In this document: piece after piece, positions 704 through 21,843 of the stretch
How positions within the stretch are numbered: the stretch's first letter is position 1
Layout of the letters: each line of letters opens with the position of its first letter
DNA from: Squalus acanthias
Taxonomy: Eukaryota
NCBI GenBank assembly: GCA_030390025.1
Contig: CM059431.1
Coordinates: 103,480,001 to 103,544,000, forward strand
DNA length: 64,000 nucleotides
Reading direction: 5' to 3'
Position numbers and translations under genes: made by a program
Notes under the pieces: model-generated
What the model was told of the DNA's origin: nothing
Databases searched by the model: none
What the model saw: only the letters and a program-made list of their open reading frames with translations

Positions 704-1170
704 AAAAAAGAAAGACTTGTATTTCTATAGCGCCTTTCACAACCTCAGGATGTCCCAAAGCGTTTTAGAGCCAATGAAGGACTTTATGAAGTGGAGCCAC
801 TGTTGTATTGTAGGAAACGCGGCAGCCAATTTGTACACAGCAAGCTCCCACAAACAGCAATGTGATAATGACCAGATAATGTTTTTTAGTGATGTTGTTT
901 GAAGGATAAATATTGGCCAGGATACCAGAGAGAACTCCCCTGCTCCTCTTTGAAATAGTGCCCTGGGATCTTTTACGCCCACCTGAGAGAGCAGACGGGG
1001 CCTTGGTTTACCGTCTCAACTGAAAGACGGCACCTCCGACAGTGCAGCACTCCCTCAGTGGAGTGTCAACTGAGATTTTTGTGGTCCAGTCTCTGGAGTG
1101 GGACTTGAATGCACACCCTTCTAACTCACAGAACGAGAGTGCTACCCACTGAGCCATGACTGACACTGCA
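704..1170 (-). mobile_element. tRNA-headed Deu-domain SINE (SacSINE1-like), near full length
   Basis: Reverse complement has an A/B-box head (TGGCTCAGTGG...TTCAAGTCCC), the shared central domain and an L2-like tail (GAAAGGCGCTATAGAAATACAAG). More than 10 copies in the window. Confidence 0.85.
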
Positions 1171-1311
1171 TCGAGGTCTTGTAATGGCCTTTACTGATCA
1201 GCTTTACGAATGACTCAAAGCTAGCATCAAAATGAAAATTTAAGGCCTGCTTGGTACTGGCAACTTTAGTTAGCTTTTTTCTTTCCTTATTGCTAGTTGG
1301 TTGGAAACTAT

Positions 1312-3486
1312 GGGGGGAGAAGTTTGTTTTAGCCGGTAAAGTTGTCACTGGCAACTGGAGTGAACGGCCGCTGAAAATGGCCGCAACGCTAACGGGGCAA
1401 AATTCATCTGGGGGGATGGAGATTGTTGGCGCAGCGCTTACCTGCCATGCAACGCCATCCTGGTGACGTTGTTGGAGGCATCTGAGGCGAAGTTTGTGAG
1501 CAGGTCCGGCGTTGCAGCTTCCCACAGCCCCTGCGAGCGAGCCTGTAGAGCTCGCAAGGAATTGTGGGCAATGAAGAGGCCTGAGAATTAAAGGGGCCAC
1601 GCACACTGAAGCGATACAAATTAAAATGAAACAATGCAGTTTTCGGCCCTTTCTGCCTTTTTAAAAAAGTATTTAACATTACAAAGAAGTCCCAAATGTG
1701 AATATTCAGCTCTTAAAGCTGAATTCCCTTTCCTAACCTCAACAAATGGGAAAAATGCCTCAGCGCTAACACAAATGGCTCAGCAAGCCAGGGAAGGGGC
1801 ATCCAGGGTCTCGCACACAGCACTCCAGCTTTGTGCAGGGGGTCAACACTGCAAGACAGGCCCTCTACCCACAGGAGCCAGGGGGCCATCCAGAAAGAAC
1901 GATGTGGGAATACATCACTGAGAGAGTCACTGCCAGCAGTGTCGCCCCCAACCATCTGACTCCAGTACCCAAAGAAGCTTCATGACCTCAGACCAGTGGT
2001 CAGGGTCAGTGAATGCATCTTCAAAAGCCGTCTCCTACCAACTGCACCACAAGCCTCGCACACTGCTCAATGCACAACTCCCGCCCCCCTAATCACTCAC
2101 CTACCAACAAGCTGCACCAATCACGAGGCACTTCTCCCATTCCTAGCTTCACCTCACTGTGGAGATGGTGTTGGCCATTCTTGGCAGAGGATTGGCTGAG
2201 CCCTTGGCTAGTGGCGGGGCTGAAAGGATACAAGATGCTGGTATCCTCATACGTTATCCTCCTTCTCACATGCACCTCTTCTGTTCCTGCCCTTGCCTCA
2301 CCACAACTCCACCCATGTGCCTTCCTCATTTCACACACCCAAGAAATGCAGCCTGCCCAGCCAGTGGTTGACCAAGAAGAGGGACAGGAGAGTGAAGAAG
2401 AACAAGAAGGCAGAAGATTGATTTGACACTCCTAGCCACCAGCTCCTCAAGGTCAACCAGCAAGGACATTTGCAGTGGCTCCCACTGAAAGTCAGCAGCC
2501 TTCCACCAGCCATGCTGCAGCCACTGGGGTAGCACTATGTGATATCAGTAGGATAGGCAAAGGCACACACAAGACAGTCACTAAGAGAATGCATACGGGT
2601 GATGAGTTGATTTCTTGATGTCACATTGGATGGATAGACGTATATAGGTGGATTGGAAAGTTTGTTTTGTGGTGGCTTTTATTTCAGCATTGTGACCAAG
2701 AGGACGTTGTGATGGTCAGTAACAGATGTAAGGTAAGGTGTGGGACTAGTGTTGAAAGGGGAATTGGCGTTGCGGTCAGTGGGACTGCAGGCGGATGATT
2801 CCATCCTGGATATCCCGGTCAAAAAGAGGCTGTCTGGGATGCATCCTTCCGTCTGATTCCTCCTCTTCTGTGTCTTCCTCTTCCCTTTGCAAGCAGATAT
2901 TGTAAATATGAAATGACAGCATAAAATACTGGAAATACTCAGCTGGCCTGGCAGCATCTCGACCTGAGACATGAACTCTGTTGTTCTCGCCACGGATGTT
3001 AAGTGACCTGCTGAGTATTTGCAACATGTTCTGTCTTCTCAAAGGCCTTCATTTACCATCCAAGCCCTTGCAAGCGTCCAGCAGCACTCCCTACACACAT
3101 AAAAAACTTTTCACATCTATTGCAGCAAGTCAACCACTTCAATAAAATCAAAAAAACCCAGTCCAAAACCTTAAAGCCAAACTTACCTGAATGATGTGTG
3201 TGTCCCTTTAAGAGGTGCAGACTTCGCCACTGTCAGCCTGCTTGCCCGCCTGGTTAACCTGGCGTGCTTAGGACCCAGCGCTGAATTCAGCGCTAGGGTC
3301 GAAGTTCGCACTTGTGACATAAAGTCGGCGTTACATGCCGATTGACGTCACAACGCTGCCATTTTGTCTGGCATGGCGCTGCCAGTTACCAGCAGCGCAA
3401 AGGTAAGGACAAATGAGCGGCGATCGCCGTTTTAGCGCCATTTAATGATGTTATGGAGTGGCGCTAAGGCCACGAGTTTCTAGCTC
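1312..3486. mobile_element. Degenerate, internally deleted Harbinger element
   Basis: Decayed TIR-like ends with TAT/TGT flanks. Frameshifted Myb-like remnant at ~1775-2003 (+) (MAQQAREG...ALYPQ...MWEYITERV...KKLHDLRPVVR). Transposase C-terminal remnant at ~2776-2905 (-) (YNICLQREEEDTEEEE...GIIRL). Same convergent layout as 12149-16310. Confidence 0.7.
2908..3037. mobile_element. Small inverted Penelope-like terminal-repeat fragment
   Basis: CTGGAAATACTCAGC ... GCTGAGTATTTGCA inverted arms, same repeat as 23380-23540 and 36377-36563. Confidence 0.55.
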
Positions 3487-10457: not shown

Positions 10458-12148
10458 ACATAAGAACATAAGAAATAGGAGCAGGAGTAGGCCATTCGGC
10501 CCTTCGAGCCTGCTCCACCATTCAATGAGATCTTCTGCCTCAATTCCATTCACCGGCTCTATCGTCATATCCCTTGATGCCCTTACAAGTCAGAAATCTA
10601 TCGACTTCTGTTTTGAATATACCCAATGACTGAGCCTCCACAGCCCTCTGGGGTAGAGAATTCCAAAGATTCACCACCCTCTGTGTGAAGAAATTTCTTC
10701 TCATCTCAGTCCTGAATGGCCTACCCTTTATCCTGAGGCTGTGGCCCCTGGTTCTAGACTCCCCAGCCAAGGGAAACATTCTCCCAGCATCCACCCTATC
10801 AAGCCCTGTAATAATTTTGTATGCTTCAATGAGATCCCCTCTCATTCTTCTGAATTCAAGAGAATACAGGCCTAGTTTACTCAATCTCTTCTCATACGAC
10901 AGTCCTGCCATCCCAGGAATCAATCTCGTGAACCTTCGTTGCACTCCCTCTATGGCAAGTATATCCTTCCTTAAGTAAGGAGACCAAAATTGTACACAGT
11001 ACTCCAGGTATGGTCTCACCAAGGCCCTATATAACTGGAGTAAGACTTCTTTACTCCTGTACTCAAATCCACTTGTAATGAAGGCCAGCATACCATTTGC
11101 CTTCCTAATGGCTTGCTGCACCTACACATTCACTTTCAGTGACTCATGTACAAGGACACCCAGGTCCCTTTGAGCATCTGCATTCCCCAATCTTTCACCA
11201 TTTAGGAAATACTCTGCATTTCTGTTTTTTCTACCAAAGTGGATAACTTCACATTTATCCACATTATAATCCATCTGCAATGTTCTCGCCCACTCACTGA
11301 GCCTGTCGAGATCGCCTTGAAGCCTCTTCACATCCTCTTCACAACTGACACTGCCACCTAGCTTTGTGTCATCAGCAAATTTGGAAATGTTACATTTAGT
11401 CCCCTCATCCAAATCATTAATATAGATTGTGCAAGCACCGATCCTTGCGGTACCCCACTAGTCACAGCCTGCCATCCTGAAAAAGACCCGTTTATCCCTA
11501 CTCTTTGTTTTCTGTCTGTTAACCAATTCTCAATCCATGCTAGCATATTACCCCCAATTCCATGTGCCCTAATTTTGTTCACCAACCTCTTGTGTGGAAC
11601 CTGATCGAAGGCCTTCTGAAAATCCAAATACACCATATCTACCGGTTCCCCTTTGTCTACACTAGTTACATCCTCAAAGAACTCCAATAGGTTTGTCAAA
11701 CAGGATTTCCCTTTCATAAATCCATGTTGACTCTGCCCAATCTTACTATTAGTTTCTAAGTGCCCAGTTATTGCATCCTTTTTAATAGATTCCAGCAGTT
11801 TCCCAACTACTGATGTGAGGCTAACAGGTCTGTAGTTCCCCATTTTCTCTCTCCCTCCTTTCTTAAATAGCAGGGTTACATTTGCTATCCTCCAATCTGC
11901 AGGAACCATTCCAGAATCTATAGAATTTTGGAAGATGACAACCAATGCGTCCATTATCCCAATGGCCACCTCTTTCAAAACCCTAGGATGTAGGTCATCC
12001 AGTCCTTGAGATTTATCGACTTATAGTCCCATTAATTTTGCTAGTACTGTTTTTTTACTAATAATAATTCCTCATTCTCGCCACACCCTTGGTTTTCTCG
12101 TATTTCTGAGAGGTTTTTTGTGTCTTCCTCCATGAATACAGAAACAAA
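10458..12148 (-). mobile_element. CR1 LINE, RT and 3' part (interrupted by Harbinger)
   Basis: RT motifs NYRPVSLTS, QHGF, YLDFQKAFD, GVPQGSVL, KFADDTK, with stops and frameshifts; 3' tail at ~10458. Confidence 0.95.
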
Positions 12149-12659
12149 GGGGTAAAAATTCAGTTGGTTGCGCCTCCCGTTAGCGCCTTAAGAGGGCGCT
12201 AATGGGGCGCAAAGCCGCTAACGCCCGGGCGCAGCGATGTTTGCGCCGCTCGGGAACTTAACTAGAGATTGTGCGGCGGCGGTAAACCTTACCGCTGCGA
12301 CCACCTGCGCGCGCAGATTGTGACGTCATTCCATGGTGCAACGCCCTTGTGGCGCCCCGGAGCGGAAATTGAGTGGCGCCCCCTGCCTTACCGCCTGGCG
12401 CATCCAACGACCGGAAGACTGGAACGCTATCAATCGCTGTGGGGCTGGGTGGGGCGCTATTTAAAGGGGGCCTCTTCCTGTCTTTTTCTGTGGTGGACAT
12501 TTTTGCACCACTCGTTCTGAGAGAGAGAGAGAGATTCGGAGAGAGAGAAAGAGAGACTTCTGCATTGAGTCAACGCTTTGTGAGGTAGTTTTGCCTACTG
12601 ATCCTAACTTCGCTAGTACTTTAGTTGCTGTCCTTCATTACTTTGCTTGCAAAGAGAAT

Positions 12660-13819
12660 ATGGGGGCTGCACTGATTGGGGGCGTCGTCCTGCTCCAGCT
12701 GAATCGGAGGACACAGAGACGCAGAGAGAGAGTGGCAATGATGGCCAGACGGAGGAGGGCCAACAGGCGTATGTACAGGAGAGCTTACCCTCCCAGGGTA
12801 TATCGTGAACAGCTCTCCTACATTCATATCTCTGAGGAGCTGTGTTTGCGAAGGCTGCGATTCAGCAAGGAGGTGGTCACTGAGCTCTGCCACCTGCTGC
12901 AGCCAGATCTGCAGCCTCAACTGAGGTCCAGGACGTCTCTGTCGGTGGCAGTGAAAGTCACAGTGGCTCTCAACTTCTACGCTACTGGCTCATTTCAAGC
13001 TGCTGCTGGGGACCTCGCCAATATCTCCCAGTTCGCGGTGCATTGCTGCATCCGGCAGGTCACAAATGCCCTCTTTAAAAGGAGACGAGAGTTCATCTCT
13101 TTCCCCATGACCCCAGACAAGCAGCGTGACCGCGCTCTGGGCTTTGCGAGGATAGCGGGCTTCCCCATGGTGCAGGGCGCCATTGACTGCACGCAGTGGC
13201 TTTGCGTGCTCCGCATGAGAATGCCGAGGAATTCCGGAACAGAAAGGGGTTCCATTCCTTGAATGTTCAGTTGGTCTGTGAGCACAGACAGCTGATACTC
13301 GCTGTCAATGACCACTATCCTGGCAGCTGCCACGATGCTTTTATCCTGCGCCAGACTACTGTGGCAGAACTTTTCGAGGCACCGCATCAGCCAATTGGTT
13401 GGCTTCTTGGGGACAAGGGGTATGCATTGAGCACCTGGCTGATGACACCGCTCCGTACGCCCAACACCCCTGCTGAGCTGCGGTACAATGAGAGCCATCA
13501 AGCTACCAGGAACATAATTGAGCGCACAATCGGCGTGCTGAAGCAACGGTTCCGCTGTCTCGACCATTCTGGAGGAGCCCTGCAGTACTCGCCTGAGCAA
13601 GTATCCAACTTCGTAGTTGTGTGCTGCATGTTGTATAACATGGCAATCCTCAGGACCCAGCCAATGCCACCAGGCCTTGGAGCACCACCAGAGGAGGAGG
13701 AGGAAGAGGAGGAAGAGGACGAGGAGGATGATCATCAGCAGCACCAAGGCGGGAGGGCGGCCCACAATGGTGAAACTGCAAGGGCCGTCCGTCAACGGCT
13801 GATAGCAAGCCGCTTCTAG
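12660..13819 (+). pseudogene. Harbinger DDE transposase (HARBI1-like family), single 1-nt frameshift
   Basis: Motifs CLRRLRF, ALNFYATGS, GAIDCT[H][49 protein letters not shown]. One base is missing at 13195/13196. About 386 aa if repaired. Confidence 0.93.
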
Positions 13820-14131
13820 GGCCCCTGCTGTGGAAATGGCTTCTGCCATTGCTAACAACATCAATGAACCCAGCACGCAACCCCTAAGCCGGCCAAGGCA
13901 CCAATAATTCCAACCACCAACCATGTATATTTTGAATACAAAAACTTATTTATTTTACAAACTCTGTGTGTGTCATTTCCTCATGACAAACTCATAGAAA
14001 TAAACACAAAAAAACAGTCATTAACATAACTGGTTCTCACAACCTGGAGATAATGTCCAAAACACTAAACAAAAGTTGGACCACGAACCTCGGCCTTTAA
14101 TAAAAAAATGACCAGCATTTTGTCACACCTC

Positions 14132-15951
14132 CTACTTTTTGCCCTTCGAGGGTGATCTCCTTCCCTTGCGCACTTCCCCCCTTCTAACCCTACTGCTCCT
14201 CCATAATGGGACCTCAGTGGCTGCAGCAAGGCTGGTGGAAGGCTGCTGCTCGTCAGACCCTGACACTGCAGATGCCCCTGAAGGACAGCCTCGACCAGTT
14301 CTGGGCCTGGAGGGCCCGGCTGCAGACTGCACCAACTCTGCATGGGCGGCAGCAGTCTGTCCTACAGGCGGTGGCAAGTGCAGTGGAGAAGTGACAGTGT
14401 TGGCAGCAGGAATGCTGTCATCGTGAGAGAGGACAGCAACTCCCTGCTCGACCGACACACTGGCACTCCCACGGGGCAGCACTTCAGCATCCGGAGCAAT
14501 CTGCTGGAGAACAGATTGCTGGCCTGCTGCGGCGCGGTGACAGCCCCGGGGACATGTGCACGAACCATCGAGGTTGGCAGCAGTCTGTGCTCGCGTGGCC
14601 TCAATCTGAGTCTGCATGAGAGCAGTCAGAGATGGGATCACGGCAGCCAGTGACTGAATTGCAGCACTAAGCTTTAGTGTGGCATCCACCTGTGCTACAG
14701 CGAAGTGCTCCACACTCCTTGCCAGTGACTCGATGCATTCGGGCACCCTTCCCACTGCACCCATGAGCTCAGTGTGCATGCCCACCGCCTGGGTGTTCAT
14801 TTCTGCGATCAGCCGCTCCTCCTCTGCGTCCATTGCAGTAGGAGTGTCTGGCATACTCTCCCAATGGGGAGAAGGCCCCCGTTCTTCCCTACCCCCATGG
14901 CGTTGCTGCAGCCCGCTGGGTCCTGGAGCTTCACCCTCATCAGACCCTTCCCCCCTGCTCCCCTCCAGGGAAGGCGTGTTCCCAGTGTGGGCATGGGCTT
15001 CCTCGGGAGAGGGTGGCACTGATGCTCCGGCTTCCTCTTCCTCCTCGGCTGCAGCTTCACTCCCAGTGGCAGCTTCAGGGCCCGTCTCCTCAGCTGGTGA
15101 ATCACCATCTGAAAGCAGGGAGGTACAAGAGTGGCTTTAGCGTGAGGACAGGGTGGCAGTAAGGGAGGAATAAGTGCAGCGAGTTAGCAAGTTGGATTGA
15201 AAGTGTCAAAGGCTGGTGTTGTGAGGGACAAGTGGAAGGACAGAGGACAAAAAGGTGATGACCTTACCATTGCTGTCCAGAACGGGGTCGGCGTCTCCAG
15301 TGGCGACGGGACCGATCACCCGGCTTGCCACAATCCTGTGGACGTGCTCCTCCAGATCGCTGAGGGGTTGCAGCTGAGGCCGCCCTCCACCTGTCCGTTG
15401 CTGCTGTCTCCGATTATGCGCCAGCTTGGCCTGTAAGAAAAAGGACAGCATCTGAGTAAATATACAGCCATGGTCTTGCCTGATGTGCCTCCCATAGGTG
15501 AATAGCCCTTACTGTATACAGCCATGGTCTTGCCTGATGTGCCTCCCATAGGTGAATAGCCCTTACTGTATGCAAAGTGTGGAATGTGTGTGTGTGTTTC
15601 ATGAAAGGGCCATAGGTGTTGGATGAGTGTTGTGCATTGGGGTTTTAAGACCCTCTGGCCATAGAGTGAGGTTGAGATGGAGGGATGGAGAGGTATTGAG
15701 AAAAAGCCACTCACCCTGACGACCCGAGTGAGGTCGTTGAACTTTTTGCAGCATTGAGTATGGGTCCTGGGCACCATGCTCCTGGAGGAGACGCTCTGAG
15801 CCACCTCCCTCCACACTCTTCTGTAGTCGCGTGGCAAAGGCCTCCTGCCACTCTCAGGGAAGAGTATACATCTTCTGCACTCCACCGCGCCAACCAGAGC
15901 ATCCAAGGCCCGCTCGGTGAAGCGATGAGCTCGTTCTCTCACCCTCTCCAT
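14132..15951 (-). CDS. Harbinger Myb/SANT-like DNA-binding protein, 3 exons, 458 aa
   Basis: Exons 15951-15715, 15430-15268 and 15108-14132 with GT/AG sites and matching phases (0, 1), totalling 1,377 nt without internal stop. N-terminal trihelix motif (RF...L...V...ILF...WREVA..VS...RT..QC.KKFNDL), TGGG motif, coiled-coil-like middle and basic C-terminus. Confidence 0.85.
15461..15568. repeat. Perfect 54-bp tandem duplication in intron 1 of the Myb-like gene
   Basis: TATACAGCCATGGTC...CCCTTACTG x2, identical. Confidence 0.95.
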
Positions 15952-16310
15952 CCTTGGCAGCAAAATGGATTCACAGGTCTCTCCAGGCCGAGATTCAAGG
16001 CTGCAATGAGCAGGGTGTGGCTGGGGAGCAAGTTGGCCCCCCCCGCTTTAAGAAGTGGCCGGCGCCAGTGTGTCTGTGTTCCCTCGCTAACTGGCAGCAG
16101 CTGCGCTGCGCTCGCGCGCTGAGTTAGCGCCTCACTGCTCGGCCTTTGCGCCTTAAGACAGGTGTGCAGCGCCTGATTTAGCGCTCCACTCACCTCCCGG
16201 GGCGGTAAAAGTGAAGTTTCCAGTCAGTGGCGATAATTAGCGCCAGGCGCTAATATTTGCGTCCAGATGATATTTGCGCCCCAAATGGGGCGCGACCTAA
16301 TTTTTCCCCC

Positions 16311-17490
16311 AAAGTATTTATTTAATTTCTCGGCCATTTCCTCATTCCCCATTATAAATTCTCCCGTCTCTGACTGTAAAGGACCTACATTTACCTTCAC
16401 CAGTCTTTTCCTTTTCACATACCTATAGAAACTTTTACAATCCGTTTATATATTTTTCGCTAGTTTGTGCTCATATTACGTTTTCCCTTTCTTTATCAAT
16501 TTCTTGGTCCCCCTTTGCTGATTTCTAAAAAGATCCCAATCCTCAGGCTGACCGCTTTTCCCGGCAACTTTATAAGCTTCCTCCTTTGACTTAATACTAG
16601 CTTTAATTTCTTTTGTTAGCCATGGTTGGATCACTTTTCCTTTTGGGTTTTTATGCCCTAGAGGAATATGTTTGTTGCAAATTATGCATTATTTCCTTGA
16701 ATGTTAGCCATTGTATGATCACCTTCATATCTAGTCTCCCAATCTACCATGGCCAACTTGTCCCTCATACCCTTGTAGTATCCTCTGTTTAGATGGAAGA
16801 CCTTAGTTTCAGATTGGACTACATCACTCTCAAACTTAATATAAAATTCAATCATATTATGGTCACTTGTCCCTAAAGGCCCCTTTCCCACAAGATTATT
16901 GACTAGCCCTTTCTCATTACACAGTACCAGATCCAGAATAGCCTGTTCCCTGGTTGGTTCCTCCACATACTAATCCAGGAAACCATCTCCCATGCATTCC
17001 AAGAATTCGTCCTCCACACCATTAGTGGTAATTTGATTTGCCCAGTCAATATGTAGATTAAAGTCCCCCATGATTACCATATTGCCCTTGCTACATGCAC
17101 TTCTAATCTCTTGATTGATACTGTGCCCTATATTACCACGACTGTTTGGTGGCCTATACACAACTCCCACCAATGTTTTTCGCCCTTTGCTGTTTCTTAG
17201 CTCCACCCAAACTGATTCCAGTTCTACATCACGATCTGCCAAGCCAAGATCTTTTATCTCTACCGTACCAATCTCATCCCTTATTCACAGTGCTACACCA
17301 CCTCCTTTTCCTTTTTGTTTGTCCTTCCTAAATGTTGAGTACCCTGGAACATTCAGTTCCCAGCTTTGGTTACCCTGCAACCATGTCTCTGTAATGGCAA
17401 CTACATCATACCCATTTACTTCTATTAGTGCCATTAATTCATCCACCTTGTTGCGAATGCTATGTGCATTTAGATAAAGTGCCTTCAACT
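16311..17490 (-). mobile_element. CR1 LINE, APE-endonuclease part (5' side of the interrupted copy)
   Basis: YLNAHSIRNK, AITETWL, GGGVAL, YRPPN, MGDFN, LDLVL, SDHNMI motifs. Confidence 0.93.
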
Positions 17491-17734
17491 TTGCCTGTTA
17501 AATATTTTTCTGCACTTTGACCCTCTTTACTGTTGGCCTTTGTTTCTGCTCCCTACTAGTTTTGCTGACTACTTTTCTAACTTGCACTTCCAGCTTTGTT
17601 TCTCTCTGTTCTGGGCCCACACTTAGGTTCCCTAGGGTGTCCGCCTTTGGAGCTGAAGGGCGCCCTCCTGTGAAAGTGCAAGCTGTGTGGATGGAGGTCC
17701 CCAGAAAAAAAACACACTCCCAGGTCCATAAAAG

Positions 17735-20949: not shown

Positions 20950-21843
20950 GGGGGAAAAGTTCAGTATCGCCCCGTTTGGGGCGCAATTATTGGCCGGGCG
21001 CAAAGATTAGCGCCTGACGCTAATTATCGCCTCCGACTGCAAACTTGACTTTTATCGCCCCTGGAGGTGATTGAGCGCTAAATCAGGTGCTACACATCTG
21101 TCTTAAGGCGCAAAAGCCAAGGAGCGAGGTGCTAACTCAGAGCGCTGGCGAAGCTCATGTGATGTCAGTCAGCAATGGAACACAGACACAATGGCCCCGG
21201 CCAGTTCTTAAAGGGGAGGGTTAATCTTGCTTTCCATCCAAATCCTGCTCATTGCAGCCTTGAATCTCGGCCTGGAGAGACCTGTACATCAAATCTGCTG
21301 GAAATAACAATGGAGAGGCCCAGGGAAAGAGCTCAGAGTGCAGCCCCAACAGTCTCTTCTAAATCGATACAAGGAAGGGCAAATCAAAATGAACCTGCAA
21401 AGTGCTGCTCAGTACCCAAAACTCCTTCACACAGCGTTGAATCTCTCCAGAAGTCTCTCTCTCTCTCTCTCTCAGAATGCGTGGTTCAAAAATGTCGCCA
21501 ACAAAAAAAGGCAGGAAGCGGTCGCCTTTAAATAGCGCTCCCCCAGTCCCTTCCTGACTGCAAAACGTTCCCCTCAACCTGTCGTTGCTAGTGGCAGGCG
21601 GTAAGGCAGGGGGCGCCACTCAATATCCGCTCAGGGGTGCTACCGGGGCGTTGCACACTCGACTGACGTCACGATCTGCCGGCGCAGGAGATCGTGGCGG
21701 TAGTGTTTAGCGCCGCCGCAAAATGTCTAGTTAATTTCGCGAGCGGCGCAAACATCTCCGTGCCCGGGCGCTAGTTGCCTTGCGCCCCATTAGCGCCCTC
21801 TTAAGGAGCTAATGGGAGGCGCAACCAACTGAATTTTTCCCCC
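20950..21843. mobile_element. 894-bp non-autonomous derivative of the 12149-16310 Harbinger family, inverted orientation
   Basis: TIRs GGGGGAAAAGTT / AATTTTTCCCCC with TSD TAT. Both ends align to the full-length element, including the Myb start (MERPRERAQ at ~21310). Confidence 0.93.

Follow-up and report, generated by a model that had tools for sequence, protein, structure and literature searches.

A frameshifted copy of an abundant two-gene PIF/Harbinger transposon family in the genome of Squalus acanthias

We analysed a 64,000-nucleotide stretch of the genome of the shark Squalus acanthias (assembly GCA_030390025.1, contig CM059431.1, positions 103,480,001 to 103,544,000; hereafter the window), which carries at positions 12,149 to 16,310 a Harbinger DNA transposon with a DDE transposase gene and a convergent Myb-like gene. 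We put the probability at roughly 0.85 that this element is a frameshifted and likely dead copy of an abundant two-gene PIF/Harbinger family, whose sibling copies often have open frames and which has likely been mobile recently on the timescale of sharks.

From its ATG at 12660 to the stop at 13819 the transposase gene measures 1160 nt and is 1 nt short. An earlier interpretation made without database searches (the sequence-only reading) had placed a missing base in the His codon of the GAIDCTH motif, and the sibling copies bear this out, as 29 of 30 aligned copies have a T after 13195 that the window copy lacks. Exact patterns were counted across 3.7 Gb of genome, with all control patterns giving zero, and the catalytic motif has 6,787 matches with the missing base and a single one without it, the window copy itself. 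The deletion is the sole coding frameshift among the 30 nearest copies; it lies at a non-homopolymer site and fits a decaying copy. Downstream of the break the product matches Pfam DDE_Tnp_4 (E 5e-35), so that a transposase of the type found in the PHIS superfamily (PIF/Harbinger in the broad sense) is present, though frameshifted in this copy. The catalytic residues D176, D252 and E288, which had also been recognised beforehand, are retained and are conserved in 98/117, 93/114 and 78/118 homologues respectively. A sequence search of solved structures returned no chain related to the element.

To call the element one base from intact is correct as regards its reading frame but not otherwise. 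Genome-wide copies were gathered and compared with a consensus, as the sequence-only reading had proposed, and the window copy has 37 substitutions relative to the majority of 30 copies, the highest number of the 30, of which 8 alter an amino acid of the transposase and 13 one of the Myb-like protein. When the transposase is read with an X at the break, D208E, A218D and H326Y fall at residues kept in 97/117, 99/116 and 95/100 homologues. If the frameshift were an assembly error, the window copy could be an intact autonomous element, and the uniqueness of the deletion in the assembly and among the 30 nearest copies would suit such an error. We consider this unlikely, because the site is not a homopolymer, frameshifts do occur in other copies sampled by position, and restoring the base would leave three conserved residues changed in the most substituted copy of the 30. 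The high number of substitutions and the three changed residues point to a decaying passenger, for which neither repair of the frame nor supply of a protein in trans is to the point.

The 30 nearest copies are the best-scoring ones, with a mean pairwise distance of 1.0%, and since they were chosen by likeness we also sampled 30 copies by position, taking the first 30 motif matches within the first 20 Mb of contig C1, a set that includes a tandemly duplicated cluster. Among the nearest copies the transposase frame is open in 28, the Myb-like frame in 28, and both in 26. The positional set has a full-length transposase frame in 19 copies and both genes open with canonical splice sites in 8; 21 were scored full length, and the remaining 9 have no complete Myb-like gene or could not be scored. 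Scaling 8/30 to the 6,787 motif matches gives about 1,800 copies with both genes open genome-wide (Wilson interval 960-3,000). In one lineage, B1, both frames are open in 23 of 29 copies, one partial-length match having been dropped. The suggestion that the family could be rebuilt by a 1-nt repair is thereby overtaken, as both frames are already open in 26/30 nearest and 8/30 positional copies.

The Myb-like gene was predicted by the sequence-only reading as a three-exon, 458-amino-acid gene with a Myb/SANT-like domain, and this model stands: the three exons join through GT-AG boundaries into a stop-free frame of that length, and exon 1 passes the cut-off for Myb_DNA-bind_5 (PF13873, E 2.8e-7). 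Together with homology across intron 1, this gives the element the second gene with a Myb/SANT-like domain that is typical of PHIS elements. Splicing itself is predicted, with indirect support for intron 1. This comes from homology, in that two annotated shark/ray proteins span the exon 1-2 junction ungapped, and from length variation, with intron 1 ranging from 230 to 446 nt while the length of exon 1 is kept in 26/27 and that of exon 2 in 27/27 aligned copies; intron 2 is predicted from its GT-AG boundaries and has a constant length. In two sequencing runs that are possibly RNA, the junctions 15715/15430 and 15268/15108 were absent among the 15 of 73 joints listed, and contigs cross the exon-intron borders unspliced, suggesting that both runs may be DNA; they weigh neither for nor against the splice model. 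The predicted introns differ little between subfamilies A, to which the window copy belongs, and B1 (1/159 and 4/257 differences between copies L002 and L094, compared with 73/1161 in the transposase), reflecting either a patchwork history or constrained introns. Copies of lineage B1 (L094 / L122-L150, copies scored) have an in-frame 177-nt expansion in exon 3 that lengthens the predicted protein to 517 amino acids, in which a unit of 29-30 codons is present three times.

Is the open Myb-like frame kept for the host? A domesticated or semi-domesticated gene of the NAIF1/MSANTD type might look like this locus, with its broken transposase and open Myb-like frame, and domestications of two-gene Harbinger origin (HARBI1, NAIF1 and MSANTD1-4) exist in jawed vertebrates (PMC9392472). 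We regard it as extremely improbable. An open Myb-like frame is the normal state at such divergence (28/30 nearest copies), the element retains terminal inverted repeats and a target-site duplication in a dead CR1 site, and its Myb-like protein carries 13 changes relative to the majority, the most among the 28 open copies, including R68C, a change within the Myb domain that replaces an arginine shared by the two homologues compared. The domesticated genes share the same two protein types, but they are single-copy, syntenic host genes without transposon ends, whereas the present family has thousands of copies with ends and duplications. Nor would provision of the Myb-like protein in trans by this copy matter, as had been proposed, given 5,713 exact matches to Myb exon 1 in the genome and the R68C change here.

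Subfamilies A and B are about 5-6% apart, and the ratio of nonsynonymous to synonymous differences per site (pN/pS) between them comes to 0.15-0.22 in the core of the transposase and to 0.15-0.17 over Myb codons 1 to 110; singleton changes have corresponding values of 0.93 and 0.68. The frames were under purifying selection between subfamilies, and the pattern is that of functional source lineages shedding copies that drift.

Between the two closest dispersed copies there are 6 substitutions in 4,322 bases (0.14%), and a second search gave the same set. A single-copy flank compared between another sample and the assembly has 2 differences in 1,546 bases, which is similar, so the youngest insertions would be about as old as present alleles and the family would have been mobile recently on the shark clock. 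Subfamily A would be several times older; its non-CpG divergence is 0.40%, and CpG transitions make up 217 of its 687 differences. With the rate of 7e-10 per generation given for the epaulette shark (PMC10587355), 0.07% per copy corresponds to about a million generations and the 0.40% of subfamily A to millions. The earlier characterisation of the family as young stands as regards a low-divergence two-gene PIF/Harbinger family that is recent on a slow shark clock, on which subfamily A would be millions of generations old.

It is possible, although we doubt it, that germ-line transposition of the family continues today through a young lineage, B1 for example, and that the window copy is an older passenger. 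The divergence of the closest pair, of the same order as that between alleles, and the 23/29 open copies of B1 are consistent with this. Neither of the two lineages probed yielded an identical dispersed pair, however, and subfamily A gave nothing near identical; the CpG transitions of subfamily A are those expected of methylated copies, and a million generations per copy at the epaulette-shark rate also argues against activity today. When one young locus was examined on four runs, the contigs were broken at the repeat adjoining the junction.

Several observations weigh against the reading of the window element as a dead copy of a functional and recently mobile family. The pN/pS between A and B for the whole Myb-like gene is 0.59-0.76 and exceeds 1 in some close pairs, and variants shared within subfamily A give 1.54 for this gene, so that the DNA-binding part alone shows clear constraint. 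Open frames do not amount to activity, and sibling copies hold private amino-acid changes also. The figure of about 1,800 open copies is rough, coming from a non-random, one-chromosome sample with a tandem cluster. The base missing at 13195 could be an assembly error, any effect of D208E, A218D, H326Y and R68C is presumed from conservation, and the steps of expression, binding and excision are extrapolated from other Harbingers.

The ends of the element are those of the superfamily, with inverted repeats whose first base is G and a duplication of 3 bp at the target. The inverted repeats (matching at 11/12 positions), the AAA duplication and a clean empty site within a CR1 frame had all been noted from the sequence, and each was found again (Table 1). 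Removing the element and one AAA in silico leaves the CR1 frame open across the site (...EKLNKYFVSVFMEEDTKNL...); around it the host frame has other stops and shifts. The host is presumably a CR1-type long interspersed nuclear element (LINE), judging by its motifs. The motifs GCGCTAA and GGCGCTA each occur seven times in the two 330-bp ends and not at all inside the element (counted on copy L002), and the left subterminal region has an observed-to-expected CpG ratio of 0.99. These repeated motifs are candidate binding sites of the Myb-like protein.

Table 1. Features of the Harbinger element and its surroundings (coordinates in the window).
Feature	Position	Strand	Basis or remark
Whole Harbinger element	12149..16310		ends set by terminal inverted repeats and flanking AAA
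Left target-site duplication AAA	12146..12148	.	sequence
Left terminal inverted repeat, 12 bp, 11/12 match to right one	12149..12160	+	24-nt left end has 7,873 exact genome matches
Left subterminal region, CpG-rich, repeated GGCGCTAA/GGCGCAAA-type motifs	12165..12460	.	candidate Myb-binding sites
Harbinger DDE transposase gene	12660..13819	+	386 aa in sibling copies; frameshifted in window copy
Private 1-base deletion, His codon of GAIDCTH	13195..13196	+	alignment and genome counts
Spacer between convergent stops	13820..14131	.	poly(A)-like hexamers on both strands: 13999, 14099 (+), 13949 (-); presumed function
Myb-like exon 3, 977 nt; acidic, low-complexity and basic C-terminal part	14132..15108	-	spliced frame
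Predicted intron 2, 159 nt, GT-AG	15109..15267	-	same length in 27/27 aligned copies
Myb-like exon 2, 163 nt	15268..15430	-	spliced frame
Predicted intron 1, 284 nt, GT-AG	15431..15714	-	54-bp tandem duplication at 15461-15568
Myb-like exon 1, Myb/SANT-like domain	15715..15951	-	Pfam PF13873; 26-nt stretch has 5,713 exact genome matches
Right subterminal region, same repeated motifs as left	16120..16298	.	motif counts
Right terminal inverted repeat	16299..16310	-	end comparison
Right target-site duplication AAA	16311..16313	.	sequence
Host: decayed CR1-type LINE ORF2 (open reading frame 2) carrying the element	10540..17497	-	ORF pieces; frame restored across empty site
Miniature inverted-repeat transposable element (MITE), 894 bp, non-coding, related to both element ends	20950..21843	-	own ATA duplication; 78-81% identity to L002

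The family has a marked preference for its target sites. A perfect 3-bp duplication was found at 84 of 103 insertions with distinct flanks; the true duplication of copy L030 is ATA/ATA and so perfect, although it sits among the imperfect ones in this tally. The duplications fall into overlapping classes (WWW 55, TNA 22, TWA 21 and CWG 1 of the 84) and lie at the centre of a palindromic 15-bp consensus, A(A/G)A(C/G)(A/T)C-WWW-G(A/T)(C/G)T(C/T)T, with information spanning -7 to +7 at 66 non-redundant sites outside microsatellites. Such an extended palindromic target is a PHIS trait, and a 15-bp preference is known among vertebrate Harbingers (PMC2836001). The target hexamers described for zebrafish Harbinger3_DR, AAACAC-CWG-GTCTTT (PMC3016246), match the flanks of the 66 sites at 7.5 of 12 positions, compared with 3.4 in controls, and 35 of these sites have at least 8 matches versus 0.7% of controls. 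Among the classes of duplication that Han et al. (2015) distinguish, the TWA of PIF/Harbinger in the strict sense is seen in 21/84 and the CWG of NuwaI in 1/84; the C|TNA|G of NuwaII agrees in its flanks, with C before the duplication in 57/84 and G after it in 61/84, but TNA itself is present in 22/84. The loose A/T-rich centre fits none of these classes cleanly, and NuwaII is the nearest. Different subfamilies and MITEs have inserted independently at the identical base of the same host repeats: A and B1 at one base near the start of a CR1-type ORF2 (L014, L016, L119, L134), and A, B1 and MITEs at one base of a second host repeat (L005, L149, L060, L061). Seven of the 84 sites lie within tandem repeats of the ATAGAGTC type, the sequence of which is similar to the target consensus.

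The duplication is imperfect in 14 of 81 long copies, and in 7 of them at least two of the three bases differ (L030 removed); for several of these copies the two flanks come from different repeats. Imperfect duplications are thus far above what point mutation would produce at about 1% divergence, and excision in the superfamily is reported to be mostly precise (PMC2836001), so that crossing-over between copies is the likely source of the mismatched-flank and mosaic copies. Five copies that are full-length or nearly so (L004, L100, L120, L130 and L133) have flanks without a shared duplication, several of them from different repeats. Copy L109 (G000:C1:18922100-18929300) is a mosaic with an A-like transposase half, a B-like Myb half, the duplication CAA/TAT and both frames open; mosaic and mismatched-flank copies may also be mis-assemblies.

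The 120 best protein matches to the transposase are mostly shark and ray gene models named putative nuclease HARBI1, the best of them at 67% identity, and no protein at least 90% identical was returned among the matches. In a quick tree (112 of 124 rows kept, the 12 left out being too gapped), the transposases of the family form one clade, nested within a group of 72 homologues with support of 99, the named members of which are all sharks or rays; these HARBI1 models belong to the same transposase clade, and this nesting favours long residence in sharks. Recent horizontal transfer of a family common to unrelated organisms would otherwise be suggested by sequencing runs of six coded organisms that contain 0.54-0.84 of the element's words, but we think it very unlikely. 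Besides the shark/ray clade and its best match of 67%, the divergence between subfamilies reaches about 6% and is bridged by intermediates, and with so high a copy number the family would assemble even from trace shark DNA. In organisms D and F the single-copy flank is uncovered and there is little depth at the element end, and a second run of D contains 0.00 of the words, for which trace shark DNA is a simple explanation.

We sought a description of this family in open-access text and found none there, although supplements may list such families. Our verdict is that it would be a new family of a known superfamily. Among its closest parallels is Harbinger3_DR with Harbinger3N_DR of zebrafish, a reconstructed system (Sinzelle et al. 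2008, as cited in PMC3016246, PMC2836001 and PMC9392472). The two share a transposase along with a Myb-like protein, a 3-bp duplication within a 15-bp palindrome, and hexamers near AAACAC...GTCTTT, and differ in the target centre (WWW in 55/84 here, CWG in 1/84) and in the natural open copies of the shark family, which needs no reconstruction. NuwaII, a PHIS group (Han et al. 2015, PMC4482050), likewise has C/G flanks, ends that begin with GG, two genes and a length of about 4.7 kb compared with 4.2-4.3 kb here; it differs in its TNA duplication (22/84 here) and in inverted repeats of 13-46 bp versus 12 bp, and cartilaginous fish are missing from the NuwaII species list of that paper. Harbinger-Snek of sea kraits (PMC8437027) also represents a recent vertebrate expansion: many of its two-gene copies are naturally intact, 269 of them in L. 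colubrina, and it has given rise to short derivatives that are non-autonomous, but it is of horizontal origin and has RNA support, whereas the present family nests among shark/ray transposases and likely has more open copies. In the grey reef shark, Tourist/Harbinger ranks first among the types of DNA transposon (PMC12498223), and ongoing Harbinger accumulation is reported for the coelacanth (PMC5381603). A 2022 survey detected no Harbinger in the elephant shark and called for other cartilaginous fishes to be examined (PMC9179366).

Harbinger transposition is described as needing both proteins, with the Myb-like protein binding the ends and the transposase (PMC2836001, PMC9392472). By analogy with Harbinger3_DR and Ping/Pong, the spliced Myb-like protein would bind the repeated subterminal motifs and recruit the DDE transposase, which would excise the element and insert it into the 15-bp palindromic target, duplicating the central 3 bp. 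Following its insertion into the dead CR1, the window copy would have decayed neutrally through one deletion and 37 substitutions, and it would be movable at most as a passenger, as MITEs of about 893 bp with related ends likely are.

The window copy is ordinary debris and the significance of the family is modest. Nonetheless, at least 6,787 copies with the transposase motif in one shark stand against the elephant shark, in which that survey detected no Harbinger (PMC9179366); the naturally open copies would permit a direct transposition assay without building a consensus; and the conserved flanks with a changed centre raise the question of which protein sets target choice in Harbingers, which could be tested against Harbinger3_DR. 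The flank-swapped mosaics suggest that such a family provides material for the rearrangement of a genome that mutates slowly. A tentative and rather doubtful extension is that the family is natively active, with about 1,800 coding-open copies (the family making up some 0.8% of the genome, provided that copies bearing the motif are mostly close to full length), that it reads the Harbinger3_DR flanks while having exchanged CWG for a loose A/T triplet, that it homes to the same CR1 bases, and that its copies recombine into chimeras that rearrange the host genome. If so, it would offer a semi-targeted two-component transposon that requires no reconstruction, and a natural pair with which to map what determines the centre and the flanks of the target.

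Short non-coding derivatives account for 22 of 30 left ends sampled by position; 20 of these derivatives are about 893 bp long and the other 2 measure 726-740 bp. Copies of the family are spaced 10-12 kb apart in one region of contig C1 (G000:C1:19.91-19.96 Mb; L111, L119-L121), and two of them differ by 3 bases, pointing to tandem segmental duplication rather than transposition. A gene model of a sawshark (P0007) has a Myb-like N-terminus fused to a Harbinger transposase in one direction, compared with the convergent layout in the window, and may be an annotation join or reflect a different element layout. Contigs of sequencing run X1 join the right end of the element to a left end with 1 to 7 letters between, representing either tandem insertions or excised circles.

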